From the NCBI GenBank assembly GCA_003136635.1, contig PLFD01000054.1, positions 1 through 55,698 on the forward strand: a stretch of DNA of 55,698 nucleotides. Reading direction: 5' to 3'. The first letter of the stretch is position 1. The number at the start of each line of letters is the position of its first letter. Below are positions 8,999 through 32,169 of this stretch, piece by piece. The stretch is from a candidate division FCPU426 bacterium (GTDB taxonomy: Bacteria > Oederibacteriota > Muellerivitia > Muellerivitales > Muellerivitaceae). The notes beneath the pieces were generated by a model. It saw only the letters and a list, made by a program, of their open reading frames with translations, searched no databases and was not told the DNA's origin. Both the position numbers and the translations under genes were made by a program.

Positions 8999-9381
8999 TG
9001 AATTTACAGGTTTTTCCATCGTTTTTCAGGGGATGGAAAGGCCGGTTTTGACCAAAAAAACCACCTGGTTGAGACAACATTTTTAACGTGAATGGGGAAG
9101 CTCTTGGATGAGCTCAAGTTTCCGAGTCTCTCAAAGAGAAACAATGAAACGTTAAAGATGATTTTTGGGAGGGGTAAATCGGGGGATCCGACGACCGCAT
9201 TTTTTAACTACTGATAGCTTGTTACCCACAGACGCTGTACTCGGACCGGCTTCCGCCGGAAATTAACTCCGAGAATTTGACCAACATCACCACAACCTAG
9301 AATTCCCACCCGAGTTAACAAACCGTTAATCTTGGCCGGAAGTTCATGGCTCATTTTATAGAAATATGTTCAGGAGGATCT

Positions 9382-12156
9382 ATGTCCAAGTCTGCTCAAT
9401 CCGTTGTTGCCGCCCCAACCTTTGTGAGGCCGAATACTTTTACCCGTGAAGGTGGTTTGAAATTCAAACGTTTCTTCACCAAGAAAGGCGTTCATCCTTT
9501 TGATGACGTGGAATGGGAATTGCGCAGCGCGGGAATCACCGATGAAAAAGGAAAGGTGATCTTTGAGCAAAAGGACGTCGAGGTTCCCAAGACATGGTCC
9601 CAAACCGCTACCAACATCGTGGTCTCCAAATATTTCCACGGCCAGATGGGTACGGAGCAGCGTGAACGCAGTGTCAAGCAATTGATCCGCCGCGTGGCTG
9701 ATACCATCGCGGAATGGGGCAAGGACATGGGTTACTTCGCCGCCGATGAAGACGCGGAAATCTTTCACAGCGAACTTTTGCACCTTTTAGTCCACCAGAA
9801 AATGGCGTTCAACTCGCCGGTGTGGTTTAACGTCGGCGTCGAACCCCGTCCCCAGTGTTCCGCCTGTTTCATTAACAGCGTCTCGGACAACATGGAAGCC
9901 ATTCTCGATTTGGCGAAAACCGAAGGCATGCTCTTTAAATACGGATCGGGAACGGGAACGAACTTCTCCAACCTTCGCGGCAGCAGAGAAAAACTCTCGG
10001 GCGGCGGCACGGCCTCCGGCCCCGTTTCCTTCCTCAAGGGTTACGACTCCTTCGCGGGCGTCATCAAGTCCGGCGGTAAAACCCGCCGCGCGGCCAAGAT
10101 GGTTATTTTGGACGCCGAACATCCGGATATCGTAGATTTCATCAAAACCAAGTCGGACGAAGAAAAGAAAGCCTGGGCGCTTATTGACGCCGGCTACGAC
10201 GGCGGGTTCAACGTTCCGGGCGGCGCTTACGATTCCGTCCAGTTCCAGAACGCCAACCACTCAGTCCGCGTGACCGACGAGTTCATGACCGCCGCCACCA
10301 GCGACGGAACCTGGACCACCAAAGCCCGCAAAGACAACGCTCCCATGGATACCTACAAGGCCAAGGACCTATTGCGCATGATCGCCGAATCCACCTGGAT
10401 CTGCGGCGACCCGGGCATGCAGTTCGACACTAAAATCAACCAATGGCACACCTCGTCCAACACGGCGCGTATCAACTCCTCCAATCCTTGCTCCGAGTAT
10501 ATGTACCTGGACGATTCGGCCTGCAATTTGGCGTCCCTCAACCTCATGAAGTTCCGCAATGAAGACGACGAGTTTGATATCGAAGCCTTCAAGCACGCCG
10601 TGGATGTCACCATCCTGGCGCAGGAAATTACCGTGGATAACGCCAGCTACCCCACCAAGCAGATCGAGCGCAACTCGCATGACTACCGTCCTTTGGGCCT
10701 GGGCTACGCCAACCTGGGCGCCCTGCTCATGTCCCGCGGTCTGCCTTACGACGGCGAAAGCGGCCGCAACTATGCCGCGGTCATCACCGCTCTCATGCAG
10801 GGCGAGGCCAATCTCATGTCTTCCCGCATCGCTAAAGAAGTGGGTCCTTTCCAGGGCTATGCCCGCAACGAAGAACCCATGTTGAAAGTCATGAAGATGC
10901 ACCAAACCGAAGCCGCGAAGATCAAGCGCGAAGGCGTCTCCGACGAGCTTTTCATCGCCGCCCAGGCGGTCTGGAAAGAAGTCCAGACCCACGGTAAAGA
11001 ATGGGGCTTCCGCAACGGCCAGGTTTCCGTTCTGGCGCCGACCGGCACCATCGGCTTCCTGATGGATTGCGACACCACCGGTGTCGAGCCGGATATCGCT
11101 TTGGTGAAATACAAAAAGCTGGTGGGCGGTGGCGTCATCAAGATCGTCAACCAAACCGTTCCGCACGCCTTGAAGCATTTGAACTACAGCGAAAGCCAGG
11201 TGAAGGACATTTTGGCCTACATCGAAGCGCATGACACCATCGAGGGCGCGCCGCACCTGAAGGCCGAACATTTAACCGTGTTCGATTGCGCTTTCAAGCC
11301 GATGAACGGAACCCGTTCCATTCATTACATGGGCCACATCCGCATGATGGCCGCGGTTCAGCCGTTCCTGTCGGGCGCGATTTCCAAAACGGTCAATCTG
11401 CCCCACGAAGCCACAGTGGATGACATCATGCAGGCCTATATCGAGTCCTGGAAACTGGGCTTGAAGGCGGTCGCTATTTACCGCGACGGCTGCAAACGGT
11501 CCCAGCCTCTTTCCACCAACCTGGAAAACGGCAAAGCCGCCACGGCCAAACTGGCCCGCCGCCGCCTGCCGGATGAGCGCGAAGCCATCACCCACAAGTT
11601 CTCCATCGCGGGCCACGAGGGTTATATCACCGTCGGCAAGTTCGAGGATGGAACCCCGGGCGAGGTCTTCATCACCATGTCGAAAGAAGGTTCGACGGTT
11701 TCCGGTCTCATGGATTCCTTCGCCACCGCTATTTCGCTGGCGTTCCAATACGGCGTGCCGCTGAAAGTCTTGATCAACAAGTTCAGCCATAGCCGTTACG
11801 AGCCGTCGGGTATCACCAACAACCCGGAAGTTCGTTTCGCGAAATCCATCACCGACTATATCTTCCGCTGGATGGCGTTGAAGTTTTTGCCGGCCGGTGA
11901 AAGAGGCTCGGCGGAATTAGCCGAGGGTGTGGAAATCGCCCCGAAGCACGCGGCTGCCACGGCCCATGCTCCGGTGGCCGAGGCTCCGCATACCCACGCG
12001 AAGGGTGAAGTTCACAGCGATTCGGAAAAGCGGGAAAAGGGCGTGTTTCAGTCCCAGTCCGACGCTCCGCCTTGCCCCGAATGTGGCACTATCATGGTCC
12101 GCAGCGCTGCCTGCTATAAGTGCCTGAATTGCGGTACTTCCAGCGGCTGCTCTTAA
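9382..12156 (+). CDS. nrdJ: class II adenosylcobalamin-dependent ribonucleoside-diphosphate reductase
   Basis: Active-site stretch NPCSEYMYLDDSACNLASLNL, GTIGF and AIYRDG blocks, and a C-terminal CxxC...CxxC zinc ribbon. Start moved to the ATG at 9382, which follows AGGAGG. Confidence 0.9.
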   Translation: MSKSAQSVVAAPTFVRPNTFTREGGLKFKRFFTKKGVHPFDDVEWELRSAGITDEKGKVIFEQKDVEVPKTWSQTATNIVVSKYFHGQMGTEQRERSVKQLIRRVADTIAEWGKDMGYFAADEDAEIFHSELLHLLVHQKMAFNSPVWFNVGVEPRPQCSACFINSVSDNMEAILDLAKTEGMLFKYGSGTGTNFSNLRGSREKLSGGGTASGPVSFLKGYDSFAGVIKSGGKTRRAAKMVILDAEHPDIVDFIKTKSDEEKKAWALIDAGYDGGFNVPGGAYDSVQFQNANHSVRVTDEFMTAATSDGTWTTKARKDNAPMDTYKAKDLLRMIAESTWICGDPGMQFDTKINQWHTSSNTARINSSNPCSEYMYLDDSACNLASLNLMKFRNEDDEFDIEAFKHAVDVTILAQEITVDNASYPTKQIERNSHDYRPLGLGYANLGALLMSRGLPYDGESGRNYAAVITALMQGEANLMSSRIAKEVGPFQGYARNEEPMLKVMKMHQTEAAKIKREGVSDELFIAAQAVWKEVQTHGKEWGFRNGQVSVLAPTGTIGFLMDCDTTGVEPDIALVKYKKLVGGGVIKIVNQTVPHALKHLNYSESQVKDILAYIEAHDTIEGAPHLKAEHLTVFDCAFKPMNGTRSIHYMGHIRMMAAVQPFLSGAISKTVNLPHEATVDDIMQAYIESWKLGLKAVAIYRDGCKRSQPLSTNLENGKAATAKLARRRLPDEREAITHKFSIAGHEGYITVGKFEDGTPGEVFITMSKEGSTVSGLMDSFATAISLAFQYGVPLKVLINKFSHSRYEPSGITNNPEVRFAKSITDYIFRWMALKFLPAGERGSAELAEGVEIAPKHAAATAHAPVAEAPHTHAKGEVHSDSEKREKGVFQSQSDAPPCPECGTIMVRSAACYKCLNCGTSSGCS

Positions 12157-12235
12157 GACGTAGCTAATTCATCGGAGGTTTTACCTCCGTAGGGTCGGCG
12201 AGTCTTTGTTGGGAACATAAACTAGTAACCAAAAA

Positions 12236-12268
12236 CCCTGCCTTCCAAAGGTGGGGTTTTTTGTTTTT
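12236..12268 (+). terminator. rho-independent terminator of nrdJ
   Basis: CCCTGCCTT/AAGGTGGGG hairpin followed by TTTTTTGTTTTT. Confidence 0.6.
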
Positions 12269-12366
12269 GAGAGGTTTTTTGACGCTCTTTAAGCTTTTTT
12301 TGAAAAAAAGTTCAAAAACGGCTTTTTTAAAGGAGAATTAGCTATAATTTATTGTATGACAATAAC

Positions 12367-12394
12367 TTGATATAAGTTTTTTACGTGTTATAAT
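12367..12394 (+). promoter_or_regulatory. near-consensus sigma70 promoter of the low-GC cassette
   Basis: TTGATA (12367-12372), 16-nt spacer, TATAAT (12389-12394), then AGGAG and the ATG at 12420. Confidence 0.45.
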
Positions 12395-12419
12395 AAAAGA
12401 ATCAAGTTTAGGAGAAAAT

Positions 12420-12974
12420 ATGATGGAAGAAAAAAAGCCTTACAAATTACGCATTAAAATCGGTCAAGCTGAATTTGAAGCCGAGGGCTCAGAAGAGACG
12501 GTCAAAGCTCAATTTAAAGAATTTCAGGATTTAATAGTTAAAAAGCCCAACCCATCAGAACAAAGAGAAAGTGTTTCAAACACTGAAAATATGGGTGATT
12601 CAGAGACCCAAAGGTTTGTTGAAGAATATGAAAGTATTTTCAAGATCAATGATGATAAAACTTTGAGTTTGAGAGTTTTACCTAGTGAAAATGATGGGAA
12701 ATTTAAACAAATAGCCGATTCTGCTCTTGTTCTTCTTTACGGTTTTAACAAGGTTTTTTCCCGGACCGATGTTACGGCTTTAACGCTTACTCGCGTTTTG
12801 CGGGAATCGGGAATAGGTGTGATAAAGCGTATTGATGTGCCACTTTCGCAGTATTTAAAAGATGGTTTTATAACGCGAGCTGGGAAGGGTAAGGGTACTT
12901 CTTATAGGACTTCGAATAAAGGAAATACCCAAGCAAATGCTTTGATACAAAAAATGATCGAGCATCTTTCTTAG
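12420..12974 (+). CDS. hypothetical protein with C-terminal winged-helix-like DNA-binding region (low-GC cassette gene 1)
   Basis: Strong SD; C-terminal ...LKDGFITRAGKGKGTSYR resembles the wing 'G.G+GT.Y' of wHTH domains; no other family recognisable; about 35% GC. Confidence 0.5.
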   Translation: MMEEKKPYKLRIKIGQAEFEAEGSEETVKAQFKEFQDLIVKKPNPSEQRESVSNTENMGDSETQRFVEEYESIFKINDDKTLSLRVLPSENDGKFKQIADSALVLLYGFNKVFSRTDVTALTLTRVLRESGIGVIKRIDVPLSQYLKDGFITRAGKGKGTSYRTSNKGNTQANALIQKMIEHLS

Positions 12975-13281
12975 AATTTTATGGAGAGTTAACTATGACA
13001 ACAGTGCAGGGCTAATTTGGTAGCCCAGGAACAGAAATGGGAGTGAACACCCGCCGGTAAGCTGAGTAATTCACTCCCATCCAATAGCCCCTAGACAGGG
13101 GATAAACTTCGTTCATTTTATCCCCCCAAACAAAAATTGCAAGAGATTGCTTAATTCCCCTTAATTAAAGAAAACCAATGGCACTTCTGTGCTATTTGCA
13201 GGTCTTTAAATATAGGGTTCTATTTGAGCCCTTTTGTTTATTAACTCTAATTATTAGCGCGTATCGCGCAGGGAGAAAACA

Positions 13282-14250
13282 ATGAAGAAAAATTTGCGTA
13301 AGATTCCAAAAGAAATTTTGGAAAAAATAAAAAAATCAAAAGCTGAAACTTTTGTTGCTGGATGTGCAGTTAAATTTTCGGGCGAAGATATTCGAAAAGG
13401 CACCCTAAGTCATTTAGGGATTGTTATGGGCACTGATGTACTACTGGTACCTGATCGGATTGTTCCGCCCGCTACTCAGGGTAAGAATTCGGCGATAAAC
13501 GTAAATGGGGAAGAAATAAGACGAGATGATCTTCCGAAAGAAACTCATTACACTCCAGTTGAAGCGCCTAATTGGGGAGATTCATACAATGGGACTCATA
13601 CCGTTTGGTTGCCGCATGAAGCGTACCCTCGTGAGTTTAATTCACCTAGGCTTTTGGAAATTTCGATGACTTGTGCAAATCCTCAACCTGACCAAAAAGA
13701 ATATTTAATCTCTTTCAGAGTTGAAGAAATTCTTGATATTAAACACAAGAATTTTCATAAGTGGTTATTGGAGGATTTAAATCTTCTTCAAGAAAATGTC
13801 GGTGCTTACGGGATTGAAGAAGCTGAAAAACCTATTGCTGAATATATAAATTCTTTAAATGTAACTTGGGACATTTTGCCTCCGGGTACAAAAGAAGAGG
13901 CCATAAGAAGGATATTTAGTGGCGCCGTACCAAAACAAAAACAAAGGGAAACGGCTGGAGAGCGTTATGATTTTTTTATGAGCCTAAAGCCTATCCGATT
14001 CGTTTTTGGGAAAAGTGGGTTTCGACGTTATTTTGGTGCCAAGATAGAGGAGAACCTCATTATCTTTGAGAATATGGAATATGGTAATGCAATTTATATT
14101 CTCTTTGATAAATGGGAGGAAATGAGTAAAAGGTCAAGACTGGAGTTGCTGTCAGGTAAGTTCGGCACAGACTTTTTCCGGGTTGTTCATAAAGACGGCT
14201 GGGAGGAAACAGTGCGAAGTTATATATCTGAAAAAAAGAAATCGGCATAA
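13282..14250 (+). CDS. hypothetical protein (low-GC cassette gene 2)
   Basis: 322-aa ORF with SD AGGGAG; no recognisable motif; AT-rich codon usage unlike the flanking genes. Confidence 0.5.
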   Translation: MKKNLRKIPKEILEKIKKSKAETFVAGCAVKFSGEDIRKGTLSHLGIVMGTDVLLVPDRIVPPATQGKNSAINVNGEEIRRDDLPKETHYTPVEAPNWGDSYNGTHTVWLPHEAYPREFNSPRLLEISMTCANPQPDQKEYLISFRVEEILDIKHKNFHKWLLEDLNLLQENVGAYGIEEAEKPIAEYINSLNVTWDILPPGTKEEAIRRIFSGAVPKQKQRETAGERYDFFMSLKPIRFVFGKSGFRRYFGAKIEENLIIFENMEYGNAIYILFDKWEEMSKRSRLELLSGKFGTDFFRVVHKDGWEETVRSYISEKKKSA

Positions 14251-22567: not shown

Positions 22568-23080
22568 ATGCGTTTAATGATTTTGGGTTTGGTTTTGATG
22601 GCCACCACGGCGGCGATGGCGAAGGATTTTACGATCGCGACAATCGACTTTCAGCAGGTTTTTAACACCTATCCCGGCACGGTGAAGGCCCAGAAAAAGT
22701 TAACCGATCTGATCCAGGAAAAGCAGGATGACCTGAACGACTCGCAGAAGGTTGTCGTCGCTCTTCAAAAAGAACTGAAACATCCGGCGGCTCCCTTGTC
22801 CCCGGCGGATAAGAAGATGAAGGAAAAAGAAATTAAAACCAAAGAACAGAAACTGTTGGACGAAAAGAATGTTTTGCAGGATGAGATCGCCACCCGGAAG
22901 CAGGAAATGATGCGCGAGCTGATTACCGAAGTGAATGACATCATCTCCAACGCCGCGATCAAAGATAACGTGGATATGGTGGTGGAAAGAAACAGCGTTC
23001 ACTACATGAAAACCCCCAACGACTTGACCGCCGAAATTTTGGCCGGCTTTTCGAAGACGAAAACAGGCGCAGGTAACTAA
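22568..23080 (+). CDS. OmpH/Skp-family periplasmic chaperone
   Basis: Signal peptide, then KDFTIATIDFQQVF... and a long coiled-coil Lys/Glu-rich body typical of Skp. Confidence 0.65.
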   Translation: MRLMILGLVLMATTAAMAKDFTIATIDFQQVFNTYPGTVKAQKKLTDLIQEKQDDLNDSQKVVVALQKELKHPAAPLSPADKKMKEKEIKTKEQKLLDEKNVLQDEIATRKQEMMRELITEVNDIISNAAIKDNVDMVVERNSVHYMKTPNDLTAEILAGFSKTKTGAGN

Positions 23081-24032: not shown

Positions 24033-25070
24033 TTACTGATGCTTCAGAATATTACTGAAAGTCACCGCAGCATTACCATTTAGGTCGTTCACTAACACTT
24101 TTATGGAAAAGTCCGCATTAACATTAGAAGTATCAATCATCATCTGGTGGTCATAAGCGAATGGTGTATTTTCGGTGATCGCCTGCAAGGTATTGCCGGT
24201 GGAATCCAAAATTAAAATCTGACCTTTAGTCACTAAGTTGGTTTCCCAGTTCAACTGGTATTTATCAGGGCCTATTTTAATTGTTTCAAACTGATTGAAA
24301 ATTGGTTTTGTGTTTTGGACATCTGGCGGGACACCTTCAACAGAACGCGTGTTATAAGCCAGATCGGGATTATTGCTTGAATCATTCTGTTCTGTATTTA
24401 AAGAAACTGGAGGCGCGGAAGAGGCTGCGCTGGCGTTAGCGTCAAAGTTTCTATTCTCTACCATAGCCTTTTTTTTGCTCCGCTCTATGGATCCCATGGC
24501 CAAAACCACGGGAGGTGCGGTAACGGGAACGGCTTGTTGGGCCAAGACGGCATTATCGGACGAACTCACTTGAGTTTGATTGGCCTTCGCGGTGATTTCC
24601 TGCATCGGCGCATATAAAGCGATCTGCTGGTTCGCCGAGCGATTTGTTTGCGGCTTGGTCATATCCAATTCAGGGGGGACCGGGGAAGAGACTCCGGTTG
24701 ATGAAGCCGGGCTGGTAGGTTTCAGGACGATTTCGAAATTTTTATTTCCCGGCGATTCAGAATTTTGAACAAAGAAAACAAAGGCCAAACTAGCCGCAGC
24801 GGCCAAACCCCAGGAAGCACGGGGCCAAAAGGGTTTTACGTCAGGGGGTTTGCCGTGAAGCCGGCCCATGATTTTGTCGTGAAGGTCGTTAGGCATTTTG
24901 GGTTCGGGAATGGATTTCAAAGTTTTGCCCAGACGCTCTAATTGTTTTAATTCCTCACGGGCATCGGGACAGCCTTTAATGTGTTTTTCCACCGCCGCTT
25001 TTTCACGGGCCGAGAGCTGGTTTTCCTGATAAAGAGGCAGGAGGGGATGTGTTTTTTGACAGTCTTTCAT
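24033..25070 (-). CDS. anti-sigma factor (zinc-finger-like N-terminus, single TM, periplasmic C-terminal domain)
   Basis: ATG overlaps the sigma gene's TGA (ATGA). N-terminal C...H...C cluster (MKDCQKTH...HIKGCPD) resembles a zf-HC2 anti-sigma domain. A TM helix sits at residues 90-110. Confidence 0.55.
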   Translation of the reverse strand: MKDCQKTHPLLPLYQENQLSAREKAAVEKHIKGCPDAREELKQLERLGKTLKSIPEPKMPNDLHDKIMGRLHGKPPDVKPFWPRASWGLAAAASLAFVFFVQNSESPGNKNFEIVLKPTSPASSTGVSSPVPPELDMTKPQTNRSANQQIALYAPMQEITAKANQTQVSSSDNAVLAQQAVPVTAPPVVLAMGSIERSKKKAMVENRNFDANASAASSAPPVSLNTEQNDSSNNPDLAYNTRSVEGVPPDVQNTKPIFNQFETIKIGPDKYQLNWETNLVTKGQILILDSTGNTLQAITENTPFAYDHQMMIDTSNVNADFSIKVLVNDLNGNAAVTFSNILKHQ

Positions 25071-25810
25071 AACCAATCCTTTAATTGTTCACGCAAGAGC
25101 GACCGGCCTCGGGAGATACGGGATTTGATGGTGCCCACCCCGGCTTTCAACACTTTGGCGATTTCCTCATAATCCAAATCTTCCAAATCCCTCAAGATGA
25201 CCGCCTCCCGGAAGTCTGGCGGTAGTTCGGCCAGAGCCGCTTGAATGGCTTCGCGCATGTCACCGCTTTCGATTTTTCGAGAAGAGCTAACCGCTTTTTT
25301 ATCCGTCACCTTATCCCAAAAACTCCGGCGGTCATCCTCTCCCATCTGGGGAGCCAGGACTTGTACTTTCGCCCGATTCTTTTTTGACCGGATGGCATTG
25401 CGGGAAAGGTTGGCGGTGATGGTGTAAATCCAGGTGGAAAGCGCGCTGTCGCCCCGGAATTGGGACAGAGATTTGTGGACTCGGATAAAAACTTCCTGGG
25501 CCACATCGGCGGCATCGGTTTCGTTGTTGAGGAAACGGTAAGCTACCCGATAAACCATCTGCTCGTAAGTCTTTACCAGTTTCTCAAAACCGGGGTCGCC
25601 CGAAAGGGCTTCCTGAATTATTCGCTGGTCAGTTTCGCGTTCTGATCCGGGCGACGCGATGCGGGAAAAGAGTAGAAGGATTTGTTCTCTTAAATAAAAA
25701 ACCAATTGTGGAAAAAGATTATTACCGGCGAGAAAAAATGGAAAGGTTGGAGAGAAGTCAAACATGCCGCATTTTAACATAGGAATAAAATGAACCCGAC
25801 TTGGAAACAA
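25067..25810 (-). CDS. ECF-type RNA polymerase sigma-70 factor (start codon uncertain)
   Basis: Region 2 (YEQMVYRVAYRFLNNETDAADVAQEVFIRV) and region 4 (AVILRDLEDLDYEEIAKVLKAGVGTIKSRISRGR). The first 50 or so codons of the ORF lack an SD and look non-native. Confidence 0.8.
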   Translation of the reverse strand: MFPSRVHFIPMLKCGMFDFSPTFPFFLAGNNLFPQLVFYLREQILLLFSRIASPGSERETDQRIIQEALSGDPGFEKLVKTYEQMVYRVAYRFLNNETDAADVAQEVFIRVHKSLSQFRGDSALSTWIYTITANLSRNAIRSKKNRAKVQVLAPQMGEDDRRSFWDKVTDKKAVSSSRKIESGDMREAIQAALAELPPDFREAVILRDLEDLDYEEIAKVLKAGVGTIKSRISRGRSLLREQLKDWL

Positions 25811-25836
25811 GCCGGGTTCTTCCGGGGCATATAGCT

Positions 25837-26730
25837 TCAGCGTGACGGCATCTCCGGCGCGAATTCTTCAGCCGGAAAAGGGTTGGGGCTGGAGATATTG
25901 GCAAAGTCATAATAAACAACCAGGGCTTGATCCACAGAGTACATCCCGGTGTCGTAGTTAAAGGCCACCTGAATGGTAGGGTTGGATTCCTGTTCTCCCA
26001 TTCCCGTACCGGCTTTCTCTTGAGGTTGAGGTGCGGACAAATTGAAGTTGCTGTCCACTGCGGCACTTGGTGCGCAGGCGGATCCATTTGAAATCATCGG
26101 TACGCATTCTTTTTTGGCGCGTGAAGGGGAAAGCGTTGAAAAGCTCTGGCTATAGCGATAGATGGGGTGATTGTCGTAATACTGGTCCAATTCCGCCTGA
26201 TTCCAAAAGTAAGCCGCGCCGATCACGCCGCAGTTGGCTGATAAATCTTTTTCCATCACGTCACCCTGCCACTGGGCGTAGGATTTGGGTTTTTCCGTAA
26301 AGAAGAAACGCCGGGCTTCCCCTTCGCTCACCTGCCAGCCGGGGATGGTGATGGAACTATAGGGATCGATCATCCATTTTTGACCGTCCGTGATGCCGCT
26401 GGGTTTGCCGGTGATGGAATTGAGCCCATCTACCGTTAGATTGACAGCGACTCTTACCGGCAGCGGATTATAAAGCCGCACGGAGTACCGCTCTCCTTTG
26501 GAAGCCGTAACGAATGGATGTCCGTTTTTAAAAATCTCGGGTTTAGTTCCTTCCGTATCATTCACAATTTCCATTTGGAAGCCGTAGGATTGATGTTGAA
26601 TTTGGTGCCGCAATTGGTCGTCCTGCATGACGGCGAGACGGTATTTGACGTTAAAATTTTGCTCGGCGGCCTGAACGGTTGAGACCGCTAAGGCGAAAAG
26701 CCCCAGCACTAATATTTTGCTGAATCTCAT
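25837..26730 (-). CDS. secreted hypothetical protein, first gene of the ECF sigma operon
   Basis: Signal peptide MRFSKILVLGLFALAVSTVQA; SD AAGGAG; no motif. Confidence 0.5.
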   Translation of the reverse strand: MRFSKILVLGLFALAVSTVQAAEQNFNVKYRLAVMQDDQLRHQIQHQSYGFQMEIVNDTEGTKPEIFKNGHPFVTASKGERYSVRLYNPLPVRVAVNLTVDGLNSITGKPSGITDGQKWMIDPYSSITIPGWQVSEGEARRFFFTEKPKSYAQWQGDVMEKDLSANCGVIGAAYFWNQAELDQYYDNHPIYRYSQSFSTLSPSRAKKECVPMISNGSACAPSAAVDSNFNLSAPQPQEKAGTGMGEQESNPTIQVAFNYDTGMYSVDQALVVYYDFANISSPNPFPAEEFAPEMPSR

Positions 26731-26772: not shown

Positions 26773-26801
26773 ATTGGACACAGCGCCCGCGAAAAGGTTC
26801 C
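26773..26801 (-). promoter_or_regulatory. putative ECF-type promoter driving the secreted-protein/sigma/anti-sigma operon
   Basis: On the minus strand, GGAACC-N17-TCCAAT lies about 40 nt upstream of the ATG at 26730 and resembles GGAAC-N16-17-TC motifs. Confidence 0.3.
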
Positions 26802-26940: not shown

Positions 26941-28440
26941 TTGACGAACGGCGAATCCATGCATCCCCAACTCAAAACCTGCTTCCCCCGCTGTTTTTTT
27001 CTTTTGATCCTGTTTTTACTTTGTTCCACCCAAAGCCGGGCGGGTGACGACCCTCTGCAAAAATCCGTGGTCAAAATTTTCACGACTATGGAAGAGCCAA
27101 ACTACTATGAACCCTGGAGAACCGGCACCCAGGAATATGTCAGCGGCAGCGGCTGCGTGCTGCCGGGAAACCGGATTTTGACCAACGCCCATGTGGTTTC
27201 CAATGCGATTTTCATCGAAGTTCTCAAGGAAGGCGACAGCCAAAAATACATCGCCAAAAAAGAATTTGTGGCCCATGACTGCGACCTGGCCATTCTGAAG
27301 GTGGATGACCCCAAGTTTTTCGAGGGGACTGCCCCTGTGACCTTCGGCGACTTGCCGTTCAAGCGGGACAAGGTGGCGGTTTACGGGTTTCCGGTGGGCG
27401 GGGAAGAAATGTCCATCACCGAAGGGGTGGTTTCCCGTATTGAACTTTCCACTTACGCCCATTCGATGCGGACCCTGATGGATGTGCAGACGGACGCGGC
27501 GATTAACCCGGGTAACAGCGGCGGACCGGTTTTTAAAGACAAGAAAATGATCGGGGTGGCTTTTCAGGGATACAACGGGGCGGTGGCCCAGAATGTCGGT
27601 TTTTTTGTTCCCATTCCCATCGTGAAGCGGTTCCTGAAGGAAATCAAAACGGGTGTTTATCGGGGCATTCCCACTTTGGGCATATGGCAAGAGACCATGG
27701 AGAACGATTCGCTCAGGGCTTATTACGGATTGAGGCCGGACCAGACGGGGGTTTTGGTTACCGAGGTGCTTTATCAATCCTCGGCCTGGAACGCGCTGAA
27801 AGTGAATGACGTGTTGATGTCGATCGACGGTTATCCGATCGCCAATGACGGAACCATTTCTTTCCGGAAGGGCGAGCGGATTGGATCGCAGTACCCGCTG
27901 GGAGTTCACTTTTTGGGGGATCAAATCCCCTTTAAAATTTTGCGGGACAAGAAGCCGATGACGGTGATGGTGACCCTGAAGGAAGACGCCCGTTTAGTGC
28001 CTCTGATTCAATACGACAAGCAGCCGACCTATTTCATTTATGACGGTTTGATTTTCACGCCCTTCAATTCCAACTATCCCGGGATCACGAAGGATACGCC
28101 GGTGGATTTGAAAGCCCTCTATTTCCACGACATGCCCTCCCCGGACCATAAGCAGATTATTTTGATCAACCACATTCTTTCCAGCCCGATCAACCGGGGA
28201 TACGATTCGAAATTCAACAATCTGGTGGTGACCAGGGTGAACGGACATTCGATTTCAGACATGAAAGATTTAATCGCGGCCTTTGACGATCCGCAGGATG
28301 GCCGCCACGTGATCGGGATTGATAAACCGAAAGAAGTGGGGACTACCATCGTTCTGGACGCGGTGAAATCCAAACTGGCTTCACTGGAAATATTGGAACA
28401 ATACGATATTCCCAGCGACCGATCGGATGACCTGAAATGA
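26941..28440 (+). CDS. Deg2/Deg9-type trypsin-like serine protease (S1C) with PDZ and C-terminal Deg-C domain
   Basis: Catalytic triad motifs TNAHVV, DCDLAILKV and GNSGGPVF. Overall collinearity with plant Do-like 9, including the C-terminal ...IPSDRSDDLK tail. Confidence 0.8.
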   Translation: MTNGESMHPQLKTCFPRCFFLLILFLLCSTQSRAGDDPLQKSVVKIFTTMEEPNYYEPWRTGTQEYVSGSGCVLPGNRILTNAHVVSNAIFIEVLKEGDSQKYIAKKEFVAHDCDLAILKVDDPKFFEGTAPVTFGDLPFKRDKVAVYGFPVGGEEMSITEGVVSRIELSTYAHSMRTLMDVQTDAAINPGNSGGPVFKDKKMIGVAFQGYNGAVAQNVGFFVPIPIVKRFLKEIKTGVYRGIPTLGIWQETMENDSLRAYYGLRPDQTGVLVTEVLYQSSAWNALKVNDVLMSIDGYPIANDGTISFRKGERIGSQYPLGVHFLGDQIPFKILRDKKPMTVMVTLKEDARLVPLIQYDKQPTYFIYDGLIFTPFNSNYPGITKDTPVDLKALYFHDMPSPDHKQIILINHILSSPINRGYDSKFNNLVVTRVNGHSISDMKDLIAAFDDPQDGRHVIGIDKPKEVGTTIVLDAVKSKLASLEILEQYDIPSDRSDDLK

Positions 28441-29903
28441 GATTATTCAAAAATAAAAACTTAAAAGTCATTCTTGGTTTGTGTTTCACACTCTTTTTAT
28501 CCACCCGGGTTTGGGGCGATGACGAGATTTTGAGGAAGTCGGTGGTCAAGGTATTTACGACCACGCAAAATATCGATTATTACGAACCCTGGAAGCCCGG
28601 AGCGCAAATTCCACTGCAGGGATGCGGCACTATCATTCCCGGCCACTTCATCCTCACCACCGCTCATTTGGTGAACAAAGGCAATTACATCGAGGTTCAA
28701 AAATTCGGCGAGGCGAAACGCTATGTGGCCAAAGTGGAGCAAGTGGGCTATGACCTGGACCTGGCCCTCTTGAGCGTGGACGACCCGGACTTTTTTACCG
28801 GCACCCAGCCGGTCGTGTTCGGCGATTTGCCCAACCACGGCGACAAACTTTTAATTCAGGGCGGAGACGAGCTGTCGATTAAAGAGGACTCGGTTTCCAA
28901 CATGGAAATGGTTCTGGGCAATGAGGGAGGCCGCTTGATGCCGGCCATTCTGACCGACGGGCCGATTGACGGTTCGAACAACGGCTGTCCGGTGTTTAGC
29001 GGCGGCAAGTTTGTCGGCATTCCTTTTGACTGTATCGGAAAACCGGATAAAACCGGATCGATTATTCCCATCAACGTGATCCAGCGTTTTTTTAAGGCGA
29101 TTCAGGGAGGACGTTCTTACGACGGCTTGCCGGACCTGGGTTTCTACACCCAGGATTTGGAAAACCCCACCCTTCGCGGCTACTTCAAAATTTCGCCCAA
29201 ACAGTCCGGGGAAATCATCACCAAGATATTTAAGGACGGATCGGCGGACGGAATTTTGAACGAGGGCGATGTTTTGACCGCCATTGACGGCCATCCGGTC
29301 GATGACGAGGGTTATATTAACCTTCCCAAGATAGGCCGGGTTCCGGAATGTTATCTCGCTACCTTTTATTTAATGGGCGAGAAAATGAGCCTGGATATTC
29401 TGCGGGACGGCAAGCCCCTTAAAATTCAAATGCCGCTCAAACCCGTTTCACAGCTTCTGACGGACCGGCAGGACGCCCGGCACCCCACCTATTTCGTGAC
29501 GGCGGGATTTGTTTTTGTTCCGCTGACCGTGAATTATTTTTCCACCGCGAGTTGGGATTCCTTCAAACCCGAATTACAGGACATTTTTTTCCACGGTCTG
29601 CGCTCGGACCAGCAAAAACAGATTATTCTCATCAGCCATGTTTTGCCTCACGAAATCAACAAGGGCTATGACAAGCTGACCAATGTGATGGTGACGAAGA
29701 TCAACGGCAGGCCCATTACGGAAATGAAGGATGTTTTGGAGGCGTTTGACCATCCGCTGGACGGGTTTGATGTGATGGATATCGACGATCACGACTGGTT
29801 TGGCTCGACGATCGTGATTGACGCGAATAAGGTCAAACAGGCCACCGATGAAATTAATCAAACGTTTAAAATCCTGTCCGACCGCTCCCAGGATTTAAAG
29901 TAG
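28437..29903 (+). CDS. Deg2/Deg9-type protease paralog, predicted catalytically inactive (Ser to Asn)
   Basis: Collinear with the upstream gene. His (TTAHLV) and Asp (LDLALL) are retained, but the GNSGGP box reads SNNGCP. ATGA overlap with the upstream stop. Confidence 0.75.
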   Translation: MRLFKNKNLKVILGLCFTLFLSTRVWGDDEILRKSVVKVFTTTQNIDYYEPWKPGAQIPLQGCGTIIPGHFILTTAHLVNKGNYIEVQKFGEAKRYVAKVEQVGYDLDLALLSVDDPDFFTGTQPVVFGDLPNHGDKLLIQGGDELSIKEDSVSNMEMVLGNEGGRLMPAILTDGPIDGSNNGCPVFSGGKFVGIPFDCIGKPDKTGSIIPINVIQRFFKAIQGGRSYDGLPDLGFYTQDLENPTLRGYFKISPKQSGEIITKIFKDGSADGILNEGDVLTAIDGHPVDDEGYINLPKIGRVPECYLATFYLMGEKMSLDILRDGKPLKIQMPLKPVSQLLTDRQDARHPTYFVTAGFVFVPLTVNYFSTASWDSFKPELQDIFFHGLRSDQQKQIILISHVLPHEINKGYDKLTNVMVTKINGRPITEMKDVLEAFDHPLDGFDVMDIDDHDWFGSTIVIDANKVKQATDEINQTFKILSDRSQDLK

Positions 29904-29912
29904 ATCTTAATC

Positions 29913-30284
29913 ATGGGAAAAATTAAAACTCAGCTGACCATCTTTACGGTTTCACTGGATATGGTGCGAGCCGGCAATTTTGAGCGAAAAAACCAGTTTG
30001 AAAAACTTTATGAAACTTATGCGCACTTGTTAACGCGTATGAGAAAACCGGGGGTAGATCGAAACTATCCGATGATCCGTTTATTAATTCTTACCGTGAC
30101 TAAAAACGTCGAAAAGCTTTCGGTTCCTTTAAAAAAGTCGGATGCGGACGCGGAAGACATTCGGCATTCCCTTGAGACTTTAAAAGGGGTTCCGGGAGTT
30201 TCTCAACCCACGGGGAGCGCGGAAGACCAGCAATGGATCGCGGGTTTTGAAGAACGTCTCAAGAACTTCCCGACACAACCGTAA
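29913..30284 (+). CDS. hypothetical protein
   Basis: ORF 9 nt after the Deg paralog; no motif. Confidence 0.35.
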   Translation: MGKIKTQLTIFTVSLDMVRAGNFERKNQFEKLYETYAHLLTRMRKPGVDRNYPMIRLLILTVTKNVEKLSVPLKKSDADAEDIRHSLETLKGVPGVSQPTGSAEDQQWIAGFEERLKNFPTQP

Positions 30285-31159: not shown

Positions 31160-31213
31160 TGGTGATGGAGTTCGCCAGAACCGTTCCCCCTGAGGGAGCT
31201 AATGACTCCTACC
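31160..31213 (+). ncRNA. fluoride riboswitch (crcB RNA motif)
   Basis: GGUGAUGGAGUUCGCCAGAACCGUUCCCCCUGAGGGAGCUAAUGACUCCUAC matches the crcB-motif consensus (GGnGAUGGnGUUCGCC...AAcCG...GCUgAUGAnUCCUAC), directly upstream of crcB. Confidence 0.85.
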
Positions 31214-31241
31214 GGCCAGGCTGGTAGGAGTTTTTTGTTTT
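31205..31241 (+). terminator. riboswitch expression-platform terminator
   Basis: CTCCTACC...GGTAGGAG hairpin overlapping the aptamer 3' end, followed by TTTTTTGTTTT. Confidence 0.6.
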
Positions 31242-31276
31242 ACCGGCCAAGCCCATTTGACGCGAAGGAGAGAGCG

Positions 31277-31651
31277 ATGGACAAACTGATTTGGATCGCC
31301 CTGGGAGGCGTTTTAGGCGCATGGAGCCGCTATTTTATGGGGCTGTGGGCGGTGGAGAAATGGGGCAGTGATTTCGCGGTGGGGACCTTGATGATCAACA
31401 TCATTGGTTCTTTTGTGATGGCCTGGGTTTTGTATTTGAACGCCTCCCGGGGAGTTTTTTCGCCGAATATCCGGCTTTTTCTCACGGTGGGTTTTTGCGC
31501 CACTTTTACCACCTTCTCCACCTTTAGCTGGGACACCCTTCGCTATCTTTCGGAGGGAAATTTTAAATATTTCGCGATGAACATCACCTTTAACGTAGCC
31601 GGATGCCTTTTGGGCAGCTGGTTCGGAATCATGCTGGCGAAACTTTTATAA
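31277..31651 (+). CDS. crcB: fluoride ion channel CrcB/Fluc
   Basis: MDKLIWIALGGVLGAWSRY... four-TM, about 125-aa CrcB architecture. Start moved downstream of the riboswitch and terminator, with SD GAAGGAG. Confidence 0.85.
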   Translation: MDKLIWIALGGVLGAWSRYFMGLWAVEKWGSDFAVGTLMINIIGSFVMAWVLYLNASRGVFSPNIRLFLTVGFCATFTTFSTFSWDTLRYLSEGNFKYFAMNITFNVAGCLLGSWFGIMLAKLL

Positions 31652-31824: not shown

Positions 31825-32169
31825 ATGCAGCCATTTGGAAAGTCGAAAGTTTTACGGATCTATGTGGATGAAAATATCAAAGTGGAAAACGAATTGCTTT
31901 ACCGGGCGATTGTTAAAAAGTGGCTGGCGATGAAATTAAAAGGCGCCACTGTTTATAAAGCGGTTGAGGGTTTCGGATCTTCGGCGCATATCCGTGACGC
32001 TGGTATTTTGGAGATCAGCGAAAATCTTCCGGTGGTGATTGAAACCATTGATATCGCGACCCAGGTGGCCAAGGCCCTCAAGGCGGTGGAGGCTTTATTG
32101 CCGGTCCATTGTCTGGTGACTTTGCAGGATATTAACGTGATCCGTTACCACCGTCCCAAAGGAAAATAA
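31825..32169 (+). CDS. DUF190 (PII-like fold) fluoride-associated protein
   Basis: KVLRIYVDENIKV...GATVYKAVEGFGSSAHIRD...LPVVIETID...VIRY matches the DUF190/COG1993 pattern commonly linked to crcB. Confidence 0.8.
   Translation: MQPFGKSKVLRIYVDENIKVENELLYRAIVKKWLAMKLKGATVYKAVEGFGSSAHIRDAGILEISENLPVVIETIDIATQVAKALKAVEALLPVHCLVTLQDINVIRYHRPKGK

Follow-up and report, generated by a model that had tools for sequence, protein, structure and literature searches.

A conserved tandem of a Deg2/Deg9-type HtrA protease and a predicted pseudo-protease paralogue in candidate division FCPU426

HtrA proteases are the textbook case of protein quality-control cages that work without ATP, and each cage is treated as a homo-oligomer in which all subunits are alike and active. 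Here we describe a pair of adjacent HtrA genes in a contig of a candidate division FCPU426 bacterium (PLFD01000054.1 of GenBank assembly GCA_003136635.1; the whole stretch of 55,698 nucleotides is referred to as the window), the FCPU426 taxon being a candidate phylum. The first gene, G1 (26941..28440, plus strand), encodes an active Deg2/Deg9-type HtrA protease of 499 amino acids from a TTG start, and the second, G2 (28437..29903, plus strand), a full-length Deg2/Deg9-type pseudo-protease of 488 amino acids, which carries an Asn at the position of the catalytic Ser. With moderate confidence we propose that the two form a two-gene periplasmic HtrA machine, in which one catalytic and one non-catalytic paralogue would be combined in a mixed oligomer.

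The gene pair and its active sites

G1 and G2 are in different reading frames and are separated by the stop codon of G1, and thus constitute two open reading frames (ORFs). The sequence reads AAATGA at their junction, where the ATG of G2 is nested in the TGA stop of G1, forming a four-nucleotide ATGA stop/start overlap (28437..28440, plus strand). An alternative in-frame ATG of G1 at 26959 is the likelier true start, since the resulting 493 amino acids match the 492-494 of the orthologues; the residue numbers of G1 given here count from the TTG.

The two proteins have the same domain order, a protease domain followed by a first PDZ domain (PDZ1) and by PDZ_3, the second PDZ domain (PDZ2), and Trypsin_2, PDZ families and PDZ_3 (PF17815) of Pfam match both. 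The matches of G1 are to Trypsin_2, Trypsin, PDZ_2 and PDZ_3, and the Trypsin_2 match of G2 is weak (33.7 bits); the PDZ_3 matches cover nearly the whole profile in both, with E-values of 8.4e-29 (G1) and 4.6e-30 (G2). By BLASTP the proteins are collinear, with 40% identity over the full length (E = 4e-123), and they end in the related tails SDRSDDLK (G1) and SDRSQDLK (G2). Pfam, the end-to-end alignment and the tails agree with the initial annotation, which had described a tandem of collinear Deg2/Deg9-type proteins with Deg-C tails. Phmmer aligns G1 over its full length to Deg9 (5IL9, 1.9e-98) and Deg2 (4FLN, 8.5e-87), and G2 to Deg2 (3.6e-59) and Deg9 (2.8e-57). An assignment to the classical DegP, DegQ or DegS proteins or to MamE/MamO was rejected because the NCBIfam scores are far under the cut-offs: TIGR02037 (Do family) gives 123.6 bits for G1 and 56.3 bits for G2, below its cut-off of 416.2, both proteins are far under every cut-off of the DegP/DegQ/DegS equivalogs, and MamE and MamO (NF040961) score 67.6 and 11 bits, respectively, against a cut-off of 800.

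The N-termini of both proteins have a short charged segment, then a series of hydrophobic residues, then a site with small residues (...SRA followed by GDD in G1, and ...VWG followed by DDE in G2), which, as judged by eye, look like Sec signal peptides. About 4 kb upstream of the pair there is a gene for a periplasmic chaperone of the Skp/OmpH family (22568..23080, plus strand; E = 1.8e-21), which indicates an envelope with two membranes, including an outer membrane. Given these N-termini and the nearby Skp/OmpH gene, G1 and G2 are probably located in the periplasm.

The full triad attributed to G1 in the initial annotation was found as His84 (codon 27190..27192, in TNAHVV), Asp115 (27283..27285, in DCDLAIL) and Ser193 (27517..27519, in GNSGGP), all on the plus strand. 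Both His84 and Ser193 are invariant in 58/58 active homologues, G1 included, and the third triad residue is Asp in 54 and Glu in four of them. G1 bears every sequence hallmark of an active HtrA protease, and its sequence, domains and fold all identify it as a genuine HtrA protein of the Deg2/Deg9 subfamily.

In G2, the triad His and Asp are retained as His77 (28665..28667, in TTAHLV) and Asp108 (28758..28760, in DLDLALL), and the codon at the position of the catalytic Ser (28980..28982, plus strand as for the others) is AAC, encoding Asn182 in the motif GSNNGCP. This residue stands opposite the Ser in three alignments, namely BLASTP of G1 against G2, MAFFT of 118 homologues, and phmmer against the Deg2 chain 4FLN, where nngcp of G2 faces nsggp of the Deg2 crystal sequence and Asn182 faces Ser268. 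It had been proposed from the DNA that G2 keeps His and Asp with Ser replaced by Asn, and that alignment to a characterised Deg protein could settle the point; Asn182 occupies the nucleophile position in every alignment, that with Deg2 included.

A homologue search with G2 recovered about 58 orthologue clusters, at 47-95% identity, and a separate group at 40-46% identity that corresponds to the orthologues of G1. Across the G2 clade (n = 58 clusters) the nucleophile column holds Asn (25), Asp (17), Tyr (9), Leu (3), Glu (2), Gln (1) and Phe (1), and never Ser (0/58). The triad His is kept in 44/58 and is R, Q or N in the other 14, and the triad Asp is kept in 56/58. The HtrA catalytic triad and GNSGG box are present in G1 and incomplete in G2 (H77, D108, and N182 in SNNGCP), and G2 is therefore classified as a non-peptidase homologue of the HtrA/DegP family (MEROPS S1C), belonging to the Deg2/Deg9 subfamily by descent.

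Conservation of the pair and its counterparts in other bacteria

A scan covering one genome per GTDB species identified G2 orthologues at 20 loci, most of them labelled candidate division FCPU426 and the rest carrying generic labels. Proteins of the window are 73-78% identical to those of these genomes, which makes its origin in the same phylum very probable. A G1 orthologue lies immediately upstream of G2 in 19 of these loci, and the 20th is cut by the end of its contig. The stop codon of G1 overlaps the start codon of G2 in all of 23 related FCPU426 loci, 18 times as ATGA and in the remaining five as TTGA, GTGA/TGATG or TAATG, and a purine-rich run resembling a Shine-Dalgarno sequence is often found just upstream of the overlapping start. 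The gene calls of the public assemblies show the same overlaps of 4 or 1 nucleotides. The genes flanking the pair vary among genomes, so the conserved unit is the pair itself. The suggestion of translational coupling, made originally from the ATGA of the window alone, is strengthened by the retention of the overlap in all related loci, which fits a coupled, approximately equimolar expression.

The ratio of nonsynonymous to synonymous substitution rates (dN/dS) was computed against three relatives. It is 0.067 for G2 and 0.095 for G1 against a relative with 95% amino acid identity in G2, 0.151 and 0.113 against one with 80%, and 0.112 and 0.108 against one with 74%. Purifying selection acts on G2 just as it does on G1. 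Within-clade identities of G2 and G1 are 0.62 and 0.74 in the protease domain, 0.54 and 0.59 in PDZ1, and 0.59 and 0.60 in PDZ2. Among 20 paired genomes, the only stretch of G2 clearly less conserved than in G1 is the active-site (L1/LD) loop, residues ~164-183 (28926..28985, plus strand), with a mean column conservation of 0.57 versus 0.88. The positions conserved in G1 only (L179, Q183, A186, A187, P190, N192, S193, V206, Q209 and Y211) fall exactly in the TDAAINPGNSGGP box and in the GVAFQGY segment that follows it.

G2 was modelled with AlphaFold2 from 35 orthologues, with a predicted local distance difference test score (pLDDT) of 87.7 and a predicted template modelling score (pTM) of 0.82. 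In Foldseek, the model matches whole Deg9/Deg2 protomers with template modelling (TM) scores of 0.86-0.91 and root-mean-square deviations (rmsd) of 2.5-2.8 Å over ~465 columns (for Deg9, TM 0.86/0.90 and rmsd 2.5 Å), whereas the TM scores against DegP and DegQ are only about 0.4-0.5. In Deg2, Trp134 of the LA loop stacks on Tyr440 of the internal PDZ2 ligand (β21), beside an (A/G)G turn, and this stiffens the protomer and allows two trimers to lock into a sealed hexamer (PMC3481350). These cage-lock elements were located by alignment as EPW, PTYF and DG in G1, and as EPW, PTYF and AG in G2. In the G2 clade, the LA-loop Trp is present in 58/58, the β21 Tyr in 55/58 and the turn Gly in 57/58, and the DLG loop of PDZ1 of G2 has a nearly invariant D233 and an invariant G235. 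Since only the active-site loop is relaxed and the model matches a whole protomer, G2 has given up catalysis and has kept its overall fold, its two PDZ domains and the residues of the cage lock.

Two cysteines are characteristic of the G2 clade and flank its dead catalytic centre. Cys63 (codon 28623..28625, plus strand) turns the GSG of the active proteins into GCG and is present in 53/58 of the clade; the same column holds Ser, and once Thr, in the 57 active homologues counted. Cys184 (28986..28988, plus strand), two residues past the dead nucleophile, replaces the second Gly of the S-G-G box in 57/58, this position being Gly in 58/58 active homologues. One G2 orthologue lacks both residues. 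It is possible that they form a periplasmic disulfide stapling the dead loop, or else a thiol or metal site.

The same GTDB scan returned four distant matches, in Verrucomicrobiae, Limisphaerales, Pirellulales and Planctomycetota, referred to here as members of the PVC (Planctomycetes-Verrucomicrobia-Chlamydiae) group. In all four loci an active Deg9-like gene is directly followed by a much more diverged paralogue, with ENF, KNQ, WNA and RDN in place of the triad. Searching with one of these second copies recovered at least 379 clusters. In this dead family Pfam sees only PDZ_3, and its members, where named, are almost always called "hypothetical protein". Among 120 members the triad His is changed to D, E or Q, the Asp is Asn in 119 and the Ser is Trp in 91, and the LA-loop Trp is kept in 120/120 and the β21 Tyr in 119/120. 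Three more members have the active partner directly upstream, with a 4-nucleotide overlap or a 5-nucleotide gap, so that the order of active and then dead copy is seen in 7/7 Verrucomicrobiota/Planctomycetota loci examined. An AlphaFold2 model of a PVC dead protein (pLDDT 86.5) matches the whole Deg9 protomer with TM scores of 0.80/0.83. The Cys63/Cys184 pair was not found in the PVC dead partners; these are nonetheless paired with an active gene, so the gene pairing is independent of the two cysteines.

Intact triads were found in 135/136 representative Deg9-like clusters nearest to G2, and the gammaproteobacterial Deg9-like examples are single copy, for which reasons the dead partners are regarded as lineage-specific additions. 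The remaining representative (P0376) has the triad D-D-R and falls outside both the G2 and the PVC dead clades, which hints at additional independent losses. In a neighbour-joining tree of the whole-length proteins, the FCPU426 G2 clade and the PVC second copies are joined with 94% bootstrap support, but the domain trees do not uphold a single ancient origin of all dead copies, as the support for this grouping drops to 45% with the protease domain and to 0% with PDZ2. In the PDZ2 tree, the G1 and G2 of FCPU426 are sisters (69%); in this domain their mutual identity is 45%, compared with 25% to the PVC proteins, and an insertion of 4 residues is common to both and absent elsewhere. The whole-length grouping of the dead copies is thus a probable long-branch attraction artifact, and we lean towards independent duplications as the source of the FCPU426 and PVC dead copies, although gene conversion between neighbours could mimic the sister pattern of G1 and G2 in PDZ2.

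Proposed assembly, rival explanations and known systems

In the mechanism that we propose, G1 and G2 would be co-translated in amounts near 1:1, exported via their Sec-type signal peptides, and assembled as a mixed oligomer. In one candidate form, a trimer of G2 would cap a trimer of G1, in the arrangement that the two trimers have in the Deg2 hexamer, and another would be built of mixed G1/G2 trimers. In either form, G2 would contribute surfaces for oligomerisation, PDZ sites for the binding of peptides and a chamber wall that does not cut, and would thereby gate or tune the activity of G1 and hold substrates. A mixed assembly is the most economical reading because the elements for assembly and peptide binding are kept, the adjacency is strict and the stop and start codons overlap; from these features we infer the physical interaction between G1 and G2, its stoichiometry and its effect on G1.

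We consider it very improbable that G2 is still a protease by virtue of another nucleophile, Cys184 or Ser180. His77 and Asp108 are intact in the G2 of the window and a near-invariant Cys lies two residues past the old Ser site, but Cys184 sits off the nucleophile position, and the 14/58 orthologues that have lost the His retain it nevertheless. The Ser of GSNNG, for which the initial annotation had left room as the true nucleophile, pairs as Ser180 with the Gly two residues before that position, in a column that is highly variable in the clade (K25, A12, S6, T4 and others). Moreover, the residues of the oxyanion hole and S1 pocket that are conserved in G1 are unconstrained in G2. Both candidates were rejected on the grounds of this clade-level variability and of the His loss. 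There is next to no chance that G2 is a recent duplicate decaying to a pseudogene, or that the Asn is a sequencing or assembly error. The codon AAC is indeed a single transition away from AGC (Ser), but the frame of G2 is intact over its 488 amino acids, its dN/dS is 0.07-0.15, the 58 orthologue clusters, all without the Ser, come from independent assemblies, and the clade is monophyletic with 98-100% bootstrap support. Error and decay were rejected on the dN/dS values and the 58/58 clusters and, mis-alignment being likewise ruled out, the predicted pseudo-protease of the initial annotation can be regarded as a conserved one.

The main rival of a mixed assembly is a G2 that acts as a protease-independent chaperone or holdase in its own homo-oligomeric cage, co-expressed with G1 and sharing its clients, with the subunits unmixed. 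A homo-oligomer would need no more than what G2 keeps, namely its fold, the two PDZ domains and the residues of the cage lock. HtrA proteins retain the binding and holding of substrates when their Ser is mutated. Deg2 has chaperone-like activity (PMC3481350). Two considerations weigh directly against mixing: many bacteria carry a single active Deg9-like gene and no dead partner, from which it follows that the active enzyme needs no partner in general, and adjacency and coupling would also fit two separate co-regulated homo-oligomers. On the other side, a strict order with stop/start overlap, held across the 47-95% identity range while the flanks change, is more typical of the subunits of one complex, and a separate holdase fails to explain why the dead copy was never without an adjacent active copy in the loci examined. 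We therefore consider the holdase unlikely, albeit deserving of serious attention. More doubtful still is a repurposing of G2 apart from the proteolysis by G1, as a redox or metal sensor or a scaffold that would use Cys63 and Cys184 near the His and Asp. The two cysteines are synapomorphies of the G2 clade (53/58 and 57/58), and there are precedents in the metal binding of MamO (PMC4794232) and in the flagellar disk lattice of PflC (PMC12222027). However, the PVC dead partners show the same pairing without the cysteines, the His is lost in 14/58 while Cys184 stays, contrary to a fixed Cys-His site, the relatives examined show no recurring functional neighbours, and the Cys pair may be a mere loop-stapling periplasmic disulfide.

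Among known systems, the plant proteins Deg2 and Deg9 (4FLN, 5IL9) are the nearest to G1 and G2, with which they share the order of protease, PDZ1 and PDZ2, the unconventional second PDZ domain of PF17815, the LA-loop Trp, the β21 Tyr, the (A/G)G turn and a tail of the SxxSxDLK type. Deg2 is stromal and Deg9 nucleolar, whereas G1 and G2 are bacterial and have N-termini resembling signal peptides; and the Deg2 (hexamer) and Deg9 (octamer) cages are described as homo-oligomers of active subunits, whereas G1 and G2 are an active/dead pair, with no nucleophile in G2. In Deg7, a degenerate protease domain is retained and mediates trimerisation, and its authors draw the analogy to ClpP/ClpR (PMC3194040). 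Like our pair, Deg7 and Nma111 (Ynm3) combine an active and a degenerate HtrA unit, each with a protease and two PDZ domains, in a fixed 1:1 ratio and with the active unit first, but they do so within one chain of ~1000 amino acids, whereas G1 and G2 are separate ORFs in different frames. Deg7 belongs to another, eukaryotic HtrA clade, and is an analogue of the G1/G2 pair and not an orthologue. The PDZ_1 domain of the Nma111 type (PF12812) gave no match in G1 or G2 at E <= 0.1; with this and the two ORFs, membership of the Deg7/Nma111 group was rejected and only the functional analogy kept.

Magnetotactic bacteria have evolved pairs of active and inactive HtrA proteins several times through duplication and loss, and in them MamO activates the proteolysis that depends on MamE (PMC4794232). 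MamE/MamO and MamE1/MamE2 resemble our pair in placing active and dead members of the HtrA family in one gene cluster. MamO, however, carries a TauE transporter domain as well as a di-His metal site and acts in the magnetosome membrane, whereas G1 and G2 have no magnetosome context, belong to the Deg2/Deg9 subfamily and gave no TauE match in Pfam. The PflC of Campylobacter jejuni is, like G2, a periplasmic HtrA homologue without a triad, and forms an oligomerising scaffold of the flagellar disk (PMC12222027); it differs in being part of the flagellar motor, in being neither paired with an active paralogue nor translationally coupled to one, and in having a DegQ-like ancestor, G2 being Deg9-like. 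ClpP/ClpR of cyanobacteria and plastids place catalytic and non-catalytic paralogues in one chamber, as proposed here for G1 and G2. They have the unrelated ClpP fold, are ATP-dependent and form an experimentally established hetero-oligomer, whereas for G1 and G2 we infer the complex.

In the literature searched, we found no description of a bacterial active/dead pair of the Deg9 type, the closest cases there being MamO, PflC and Deg7. That active and dead HtrA proteins can be paired was known in principle; what is added here is how widely and how strictly they are paired, together with a large PVC family that lacks annotation. Mixed catalytic and non-catalytic HtrA assemblies may be recurrent, beyond the plastid and fungal Deg7/Nma111 and the magnetosomes. 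We tentatively extend the proposal to the Deg2/Deg9-type HtrA proteins of at least two deep bacterial lineages, FCPU426 and the PVC group, which might be obligate half-dead hetero-oligomeric cages, where one ring or trimer would cut and a ring of pseudo-proteases would bind, gate and scaffold. Such an architecture would probably have arisen more than once by tandem duplication and would be the free-standing counterpart of the fused Deg7/Nma111, and in FCPU426 the Cys pair could make the opening of the cage redox-sensitive. G1 and G2 offer a simple two-gene bacterial system for the role of a dead subunit in gating, substrate capture and oligomer control, and the pairing provides a rule by which hundreds of PDZ_3 proteins now called "hypothetical" can be annotated.

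Genomic surroundings of the pair

Divergently from the pair there is a minus-strand operon (24033..26730) with a 297-amino-acid ORF without Pfam match, an extracytoplasmic function (ECF) sigma factor and a zf-HC2 anti-sigma factor, the last of which has a long C-terminal region rich in Ser, Pro and Asn. The initial annotation took this arrangement as a sign of an envelope-stress protease. The divergent arrangement is present in the window, but the envelope-stress link found no support: the operon is not found beside the pair in five relatives at 81%, 77%, 72%, 61% and 47% identity (the closest relative was left out, its contig being too short upstream), and the sole ECF-like motif of the intergenic region, GGAAC-N16-GTC near 26801, lies on the minus strand and points towards the ECF operon, away from G1. 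Membership of the pair in the ECF regulon was rejected on these two grounds; the orientation of the motif suggests, instead, autoregulation of the ECF operon. In a generic scan for sigma-70 promoters and terminators, the matches were no more numerous than in shuffled sequence.

Downstream, an ORF of 123 amino acids without Pfam match (29913..30284, plus strand) begins 10 nucleotides after the stop of G2. Only the closest relative (L033) has a gene call for it, with 87% identity and a dN/dS of 0.24; in another relative (L034) it is absent, and a GATase gene lies directly next to G2. The ORF may be a recent, lineage-specific addition to the operon as its third gene. Further on, a fluoride riboswitch (RF01734, 31152..31218, plus strand; 48.7 bits, gathering score 34) immediately precedes a CrcB ORF, with a DUF190 gene following at 31825..32169; the CrcB-DUF190 order also occurs in L033 and L034. 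The aptamer overlaps the longest CrcB ORF (31202..31651), and the true CrcB start is probably an internal Met downstream of it. Elsewhere in the window, whose average GC content is ~0.48, the GC content swings from 0.58 at 10-12 kb to 0.39 at 12-14 kb (10001..14000), the peak lying inside an ORF of 936 amino acids at 9346..12156.

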